A model generated the notes under the pieces. The model had not been told where the DNA came from. It saw only the letters and a list, made by a program, of their open reading frames with translations, and did not search any database. A DNA stretch of 63,217 bases from Escherichia coli (GTDB lineage: Bacteria > Pseudomonadota > Gammaproteobacteria > Enterobacterales > Enterobacteriaceae): assembly GCF_003334255.1 (NCBI RefSeq), contig NZ_QOWU01000026.1, one strand, 5' to 3'. Positions 50,890 through 51,441 of this stretch are shown here, piece after piece. The translations under genes were made by a program, and so were the position numbers. Position 1 is the stretch's first letter. Each line of letters starts with the position of its first letter.

Positions 50890-51441
50890 TTACAGCTTTA
50901 TTCCGCATGCAGTGATAAATTTATTAACAGCACCAGTGGAGCCTAATACATTAAAGTTGAAAGAATATGTCATGGCATCTTCTCGTGTGATGTCTTGGCG
51001 TCGAATCCCGACCCTCACTCTATGTTTAGCATCTCTGAGTTGCCTGAGTATAATTTTAATTTTCTTCATTTCAGTATCAGTACGTTCAGTGATAGCTTGT
51101 GTTAGCATTGAGTTTCTTCTTGAAAGTGTTGCGTTGAGCCTTATTATACTATTTTTGTCAATTTTTATTGCCACATCTATTGGAAATGAATAAATTGGGG
51201 CCGATGTTTCTTCTTCTATGTCCTTTTCGACTAATGAGAATGTTAGGGATCTTGGCGTACAATTAAGAGCAATCATGTGATTATCAATCTCTTCAGGATT
51301 TGATGTTTTTTTTCCTACCATCAGCGCCGTGTGACCATCAGAGAACAAATCGTCGTCTGTTACTGTATACCACTCCGCCTGTACTATTGGTGAAAAAAAA
51401 ATTGTAGTGATAAGAGTTGTCCTGAGTATTTTTCGCATCAT
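50890..51441 (-). CDS. Secreted protein of unknown function (AT-rich moron)
   Basis: 183 aa; signal peptide MMRKILRTTLITTIFFSPIVQA; AT-rich. Confidence 0.5.
   Translation of the reverse strand: MMRKILRTTLITTIFFSPIVQAEWYTVTDDDLFSDGHTALMVGKKTSNPEEIDNHMIALNCTPRSLTFSLVEKDIEEETSAPIYSFPIDVAIKIDKNSIIRLNATLSRRNSMLTQAITERTDTEMKKIKIILRQLRDAKHRVRVGIRRQDITREDAMTYSFNFNVLGSTGAVNKFITACGIKL

Follow-up and report, generated by a model that had tools for sequence, protein, structure and literature searches.

An AT-rich accessory gene in an Escherichia coli lambdoid prophage encodes a predicted periplasmic protein with an IalB-like fold

The gene, its product and its family

We analysed a stretch of 63,217 nucleotides (nt) of Escherichia coli DNA, called the window below, that holds a lambdoid prophage, and focused on one of the prophage genes, a 183-codon open reading frame (ORF) that we name ORF183. 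An earlier note on this DNA had placed an ORF of that length at 50890-51441, between an antirepressor gene and the immunity region. The frame was found exactly there on the minus strand, with an AntA/B antirepressor (49989-50627) on one side and the cI/cro immunity region (52656-53668) on the other. The prophage begins beside dsdA and extends to the end of the window, and in its backbone it is similar to Stx-type phages and to phage PhiR12_3; the chromosomal part at 33-39.5 kb matches the emrY-dsdCXA region of E. coli strain G1/2 with 100% identity. Two features define the gene and its product:

50890..51441, minus strand: coding sequence of a 183-amino-acid pre-protein of the PHROG 19473 family with a predicted IalB-like fold; stop codon at 50890-50892
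51376..51441, minus strand: predicted Sec (signal peptidase I) signal peptide MMRKILRTTLITTIFFSPIVQA, codons 1-22, cleavage predicted between A22 and E23, from sequence features and conservation in 58 homologues

The reading frame is intact from its ATG to a TAA stop codon, and a plausible ribosome-binding site, GGGA, lies 6 nt before the start. Conservation within the PHROG 19473 family identifies it as a genuine coding gene and excludes a chance ORF; an antisense frame of 128 amino acids (50807-51193, plus strand) was rejected because the conservation favours the minus-strand frame. As the earlier note had remarked, the G+C content (GC) of the gene is well below that of its neighbours: it is 37.3% (32% at third codon positions) vs. 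46.3% in antA/B and 46.8% in cI, with 50.7% in recT. The prophage mean is 46.6% (standard deviation 4.2, windows of 552 nt), and the gene falls in the lowest 3.6% of windows. Other markedly AT-rich stretches, with 33-36% GC, are found in the chromosomal part (30200-31050) and, within the late genes of the prophage, close to where it ends on the right in the window (61200-62300).

The product of ORF183 is strongly predicted to be a soluble periplasmic protein exported through the Sec pathway. The signal peptide was called from sequence rules only, and every feature looked for in a signal peptidase I substrate is present: an n-region with two to three positive charges (MMRKILR), the hydrophobic h-region TTLITTIFFSPIV, small residues at positions -3 and -1 (V-Q-A, before E), no lipobox and no further membrane segment. 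The mature part lacks a hydrophobic segment, its maximum Kyte-Doolittle value over 19 residues being 1.01, and as no cysteine is close to the cleavage site, the protein is not a lipoprotein. The proposal that a Sec signal peptide is cleaved after VQA thus stands, with the cleavage following A22, and the features are conserved among the 58 aligned homologues: alanine is found at -1 in 53 and A, V or S at -3 in 50, while 56 have a lysine or arginine within the first 8 residues. The mature protein is predicted to be small, about 18 kDa, and soluble.

The earlier note had recognised no family for this protein. That holds for the curated collections, as scans of the query and up to 58 homologues against Pfam, NCBIfam and PADLOC gave none, the only PADLOC match being a spurious one to Csx23 (E 0.0011) in one of three members. 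It does not hold for phage protein clusters: the hidden Markov model of PHROG 19473, annotated as of unknown function, matches the protein end to end (E 8.7e-39, residues 3-183 against profile positions 3-167 of 167). A word-indexed search returned four clusters only, namely alleles of 97% and 89% identity, a 122-amino-acid partial copy (97%) and a 167-amino-acid E. coli protein (45%). An exhaustive search of 1.84 billion cluster representatives returned 68 proteins at E <= 1e-3, including 23 at E <= 1e-10, and all ten of a diverse sample of the homologues matched PHROG 19473. The relatives are nearly all 160-180 amino acids long, every one is annotated as "hypothetical", and their hosts include Salmonella, Yersinia, Xenorhabdus, Pantoea, Ewingella, Pseudomonas and the alphaproteobacterium Amorphus. 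A literature search with the protein accession or the PHROG identifier found nothing.

Three residues, W24, C61 and C179, are invariant in the alignment of 58 homologues, and D31, F33, D95, N110, G145 and F175 are nearly so. W24 lies two residues past the predicted cleavage site. The presence of two invariant cysteines in a protein predicted to be exported suggests a C61-C179 disulfide that would stabilise the fold. Domain fusions were considered as hints to function and set aside. Two family members, P0048 and P0054, are extended at the C terminus by 140 to 230 amino acids in which no domain was recognisable, and P0062, P0066 and P0032 look like miscalled or fused ORFs. In P0062, a capsid-E-like N terminus is followed by the domain's C-terminal half, and truncation or fusion of a prophage gene is the probable origin.

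The AlphaFold2 model, computed with the homologue alignment, is confident (mean predicted local distance difference test score 89.6, predicted template modelling (TM) score 0.84). It shows the signal helix, seven beta strands, a helix at residues 122-136, two more strands and, at 168-179, a C-terminal helix, and we predict from it an IalB-like fold, a beta-sandwich with two helices. In a Foldseek search against AFDB50, uncharacterised family members ranked at the top and were followed by proteins annotated as IalB (E ~1e-9 to 5e-7); some of the lower-ranked matches were VC_A0118-family proteins associated with the type VI secretion system. The model has the same three-dimensional fold as the solved IalB structure (3dtd). 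Distant homology to IalB is plausible, and one family member of the fusion type, P0048, has a collinear sub-threshold match to the Pfam IalB model (independent E value 0.067, residues 74-150 against model positions 58-129). ORF183 does not fall within Pfam IalB (PF06776) itself: the query had no match even at E <= 10, and none of the 58 aligned homologues matched. No bridge to IalB was added by a profile search of a 5.8-billion-protein database or by a tblastn search of plasmids with an alphaproteobacterial member; a search of PDB sequences with the family profile gave only noise, and the viral structures of BFVD only weak matches with TM below 0.5.

Genomic setting and control of the cassette

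The homologues are found in different places. In E. coli Mu-like prophages, which occupy eight different chromosomal insertion sites, a homologue of 45% identity is the last gene after com/mom, directly before the right end and separated from mom by an AT-rich spacer of 118 nt. In two of the loci compared (L004 and L005, positions 8001-8504) it lies between mom and the right-end repeats, and this location at the very end of the genome points to the far right end of Mu-like phages as a further slot for accessory genes. In Salmonella, the homologue lies between gemA and mor of Mu-like prophages; it begins 30 nt past gemA, which leaves no room for a promoter, and a strong terminator follows at its end, indicating a gene of the early operon. 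In Pantoea, a lambdoid prophage carries the homologue with the lysis genes on one side and the terminase on the other; the Xenorhabdus homologue adjoins KilA-N/ORF6N genes in a phage tail region, and that of Pseudomonas has a resolvase gene and an HNH gene as its neighbours. Chromosomal orphans are found in Yersinia kristensenii (after dusB-fis), Ewingella and Amorphus, and one distant homologue on a Cedecea plasmid. No neighbour of the gene recurs throughout these settings. Given the lack of a conserved partner, the proteins of the family appear to work alone, and the family behaves as promiscuous stand-alone cargo that unrelated temperate phages have captured repeatedly.

The location of ORF183 itself is consistent with this. 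The gene order exo - recT - gamL - hyp - kil - antA/B - ORF183 - (gap) - hicAB - cI is common to the three E. coli genomes with ORF183 and the loci of the 89% allele. In contrast, the related prophages L013 and L012 and phage PhiR12_3, with flanks of 95-99.9% identity, do not have ORF183; their slot is taken by a Rha-family regulator with C4 and IsrK RNAs in front of it. In blastn comparisons, the homology to L013 ends at 50624 and restarts at 51664, whereas that to L012 and PhiR12_3 ends inside the antirepressor gene (at 50276 and 50315, respectively) and restarts at 51686. The breakpoints and the Rha cassette of the relatives indicate that a cassette of ~1.04 kb was exchanged and not simply inserted. 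The earlier note had placed ORF183 where lambdoid phages often carry lysogenic-conversion or exclusion genes, and the different contents of this position in near-identical relatives show that it is a variable accessory slot; the assignment as a mobile accessory cassette is supported. The cassette and the control elements in and around it are:

50625..51663, no strand: cassette swapped in comparison with prophage L013, which has Rha and C4/IsrK RNAs there (blastn breakpoints, annotation of relatives, Rfam)
51442..51663, minus strand: cassette-specific upstream DNA, 222 bp, 38.7% GC (homology to L013/L012 restarts at 51664/51686)
51953..51981, minus strand: PL promoter TTTACA-17-TATATT (promoter scan)
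51861..51873, minus strand: boxA TGCTCTTTAACAA in the PL leader, upstream of ORF183, marking a nutL-like site (read from the sequence)
50838..50867, minus strand: strong promoter-like site TTGACA-18-TATATT, 11/12 matches, beginning 22 nt past the ORF183 stop codon (promoter scan)
50773..50851, minus strand: two alternative RNA structures after ORF183 (folding)
50665..50753, minus strand: sRNA-Xcc1 element (RF02221, 69.5 bits, gathering score 53) in the antA/B leader (Rfam)

ORF183 lies ~500 nt downstream of PL and is codirectional with it; no sizeable reading frame precedes it on the transcript from PL. The slot just downstream of PL is where lambda carries ral and sieB. PL is overlapped by an operator-like sequence, ATCACCGCAAGTTATAT (51970-51954), which agrees in 13 of 17 positions with the OR sequence ATCACCTTTGGTTATAT (53375-53391) adjoining cI/cro; the likeness was found from the inverted-repeat pair I2 and by direct reading of the sequence. 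The boxA is one that we take to be identical to the rrn-type consensus, and the promoter and terminator scan predicted no terminator between PL and ORF183. Together, a position codirectional with and downstream of a repressor-controlled PL and a boxA make early-lytic, not lysogenic, expression the default expectation. No N antiterminator gene is recognisable between the boxA and ORF183. An arginine-rich frame, RERERRENGQHW (~51735-51770), lacks a start codon and matched no PHROG; it could be what is left of an N gene, or antitermination in this phage may not depend on N. Within the 222 bp of private upstream DNA no candidate passed the standard promoter scan, and the candidates for an own promoter reach only 8 of 12 sigma-70 matches, the best being TTCAAG-17-TATACT at 51544..51516.

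The DNA downstream of ORF183 seems to belong to the antirepressor. The strong promoter-like site behind the stop codon probably drives the downstream sRNA/antirepressor module and not ORF183. Of the two RNA structures, a long hairpin (50851-50790; -32 kcal/mol, z -3.0) forms only in read-through RNA, where it competes with and displaces a terminator-like stem followed by U7 (50802-50773). The latter is weak (-9 kcal/mol, z -0.75) and no better than shuffled sequences. The sRNA-Xcc1 element lies within the swapped cassette directly upstream of antA/B and accompanies PHROG 19473 only in the E. coli lambdoid cassette, being absent from the Mu-like, Pantoea and Xenorhabdus loci; we therefore assigned it to the antirepressor. 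In a study of APSE phages, sRNA-Xcc1 was found upstream of an ORF6N gene, and this and the C4/IsrK RNAs preceding Rha in the relatives led us to assign the downstream part as a whole to antirepressor control. The antA/B leader, with its promoter, two mutually exclusive hairpins and sRNA-Xcc1, looks like an RNA-controlled antirepressor switch in the style of C4/IsrK, in a layout that uses a different RNA family from that of the close relatives.

Two further observations concern the region on the other side of ORF183. A C-terminal fragment of 100 amino acids of a BsuBI/PstI-family restriction endonuclease (52124-52426, minus strand) lies between cI and PL, in a rex-like slot that in relatives holds either the complete endonuclease with an Eco57I-like methylase (L013) or a hicAB toxin-antitoxin pair (L001-L003, L027). 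Directly after the cI stop codon, an inverted repeat of 19 nt (52601-52642; 89% complementary, 4-nt loop) coincides with the restart of homology to the hicAB-type relatives and could be the cI terminator, a recombination joint or both. An Rfam match to MIR394 at these positions is meaningless.

Possible roles of ORF183

The family is already known in the sense of being present in databases as "hypothetical" proteins and in PHROGs, and the type of element is familiar. New here are the assignment of an IalB-like fold, the W/C/C signature of invariant residues, the finding that lambdoid, Mu-like and other prophages have captured the family repeatedly, and the placement within the PL operon. From these, the explanation towards which we lean, by a small measure, is that ORF183 is stand-alone phage cargo that is transcribed from PL and protects the envelope from within the periplasm. 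The protein, predicted from its sequence to be exported by Sec, cleaved after A22 and folded as an IalB-like domain, would be made mainly when PL fires, upon induction or infection, and in the lysogen be expressed at a low level at most, from a weak promoter of its own. Acting alone in the periplasm, it would bind an envelope component or an incoming foreign apparatus, and the conserved aromatic and acidic residues W24, D31, F33, D95 and N110 may form the binding site. The infected or lysogenic cell would thereby gain protection at the envelope, for example superinfection exclusion or resistance to a toxin or lysin acting in the periplasm. Although such protection, for instance by superinfection exclusion, is the likeliest benefit, this specific role is put forward only tentatively.

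Several observations weigh against this explanation. The gene is rare, the lambdoid variant being present in 3 and the Mu-type variant in 5 of 5,426 complete E. coli genomes, and among 50,697 deposited phage genomes no member was detected, either by megablast with the ORF or by tblastn with the query and two homologues. None of the known defence, exclusion or conversion families (PADLOC, annotated PHROGs, and Pfam families such as Cor, Llp, SieA/B, Bor and Lom) matched, and the literature yielded functional data neither for any member of PHROG 19473 nor for IalB as a fold. For the three lambdoid alleles, the Nei-Gojobori ratio of nonsynonymous to synonymous rates (dN/dS) is ~0.9-1.45, based on only 7 synonymous and 22 nonsynonymous changes. 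Such values fit a protein in an arms race and equally fit relaxed constraint.

The earlier note had called the gene a moron. The label is apt insofar as the gene is extra, foreign and mobile, but its strict attributes did not emerge, with promoter candidates of only 8/12 and a weak terminator. As a true lysogenic-conversion gene, ORF183 would be transcribed from an own promoter in the repressed prophage and would benefit the host in the manner of lambda bor or lom, through envelope robustness, adhesion or invasion, or resistance to serum or stress. We consider this doubtful. The gene does sit in an AT-rich foreign cassette with private upstream DNA, its homologue in the E. coli Mu-like prophages lies beyond mom and behind an AT-rich spacer, and the namesake of the fold, IalB, has been linked in the literature to the invasion of erythrocytes and host cells by Bartonella. 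The orphans of Yersinia, Ewingella and Amorphus have intergenic regions of their own, in Yersinia with a strong terminator, which indicates that the protein can work without a phage programme. What argues against a conversion gene is the transcriptional setting: the upstream promoter matches are poor, ORF183 follows PL and the boxA in the same direction with no terminator in between and has no clean terminator of its own, and the Salmonella Mu-like homologue is inside an early operon with no space for a promoter.

That same setting could instead point to a helper of the phage's own lytic cycle, which would act in the periplasm, whether produced early or late, and tune the envelope or lysis, for instance by sensing or modulating peptidoglycan or lysis timing, and would not be directed at competitors. 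The gene is codirectional within lytic operons here, in the Salmonella Mu-like prophages and after the lysis genes in Pantoea, and RgsG, an IalB-domain protein, is an essential periplasmic part of the polar growth machinery of Sinorhizobium, a cell-wall growth complex, and interacts with Tol-Pal. Nevertheless, near-identical phages do without ORF183, including PhiR12_3, which was deposited as a phage genome and lacks the cassette; the position of the gene differs in every phage type, and the family persists as chromosomal orphans outside prophages, all of which makes a helper role quite improbable. Finally, the rarity of the gene, a dN/dS close to 1 and the obvious remnant in the neighbouring slot, the BsuBI fragment, would suit a neutral or decaying passenger, gained by illegitimate recombination and at present functionless in E. 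coli. Yet the ORF is intact in all five alleles examined, no family-invariant residue has been altered, and the substitutions weakly avoid the conserved columns of the family in favour of variable ones (p = 0.03). The independent capture by several phage lineages likewise argues for a selectable function, and we regard the passenger explanation as very improbable.

Returning to envelope-protective cargo, its broadest version would make PHROG 19473 a new class of phage-spread, stand-alone periplasmic protection factors that exclude other phages or neutralise lysins or toxins by means of an IalB-type binding fold. We think this unlikely as a general statement. If it were true, it would provide the first molecular function for a fold that is widespread in Proteobacteria, essential in some rhizobia, where it serves polar growth, and tied to the virulence and invasion of Bartonella. 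Should the protein keep phages from entering or block a weapon aimed at the envelope, the prophage-borne protection systems would gain a simple periplasmic mechanism that needs a single gene. At present, ORF183 is one more uncharacterised accessory gene, and at the same time a well-defined candidate for which natural pairs of phages with and without the gene exist.

Comparison with known systems

IalB of Bartonella (PF06776, PDB 3dtd) resembles the ORF183 product in length (~160-190 amino acids), in its N-terminal signal sequence and in its envelope location. The two differ in sequence, with ~10% identity and no Pfam IalB match for ORF183, and in distribution: the IalB proteins are encoded by core genes, mainly of Alphaproteobacteria, whereas the PHROG 19473 family is mobile cargo found mainly in prophages of Enterobacterales. 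The IalB literature gives no molecular function or mechanism. The N-terminal domain of MotY, from the T-ring of the Vibrio polar flagellum (PDB 8z5n, chain A), was also compared and has 12% identity to the ORF183 product; nothing in the genomic setting links the latter to flagella. Unlike the ORF183 product, MotY also contains an OmpA-like domain that binds peptidoglycan.

In genetic terms, the closest parallels are the classical lambdoid morons and early-left genes, such as bor, lom, sieB and ral of lambda and those of the HK97 type. ORF183 shares with them the status of an extra gene absent from close relatives, the deviant base composition and the accessory slot and, with bor and lom, a product that is directed to the envelope, as predicted here. 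It differs in having no convincing promoter or terminator of its own and in a product that is predicted to be soluble instead of a lipoprotein or membrane protein, and it bears no sequence or family relation to Bor, Lom or SieB.

The superinfection-exclusion proteins Spackle of T4, Llp of T5 and Cor of phi80 and N15 offer a functional analogy only, as none of them has a sequence match to the ORF183 product. They are small phage proteins, exported by Sec, that work in the envelope without partners and are made early in infection or in lysogens. Spackle is helical, and Llp and Cor are lipoproteins; the ORF183 product, in contrast, has a predicted IalB-like beta fold and no lipobox.
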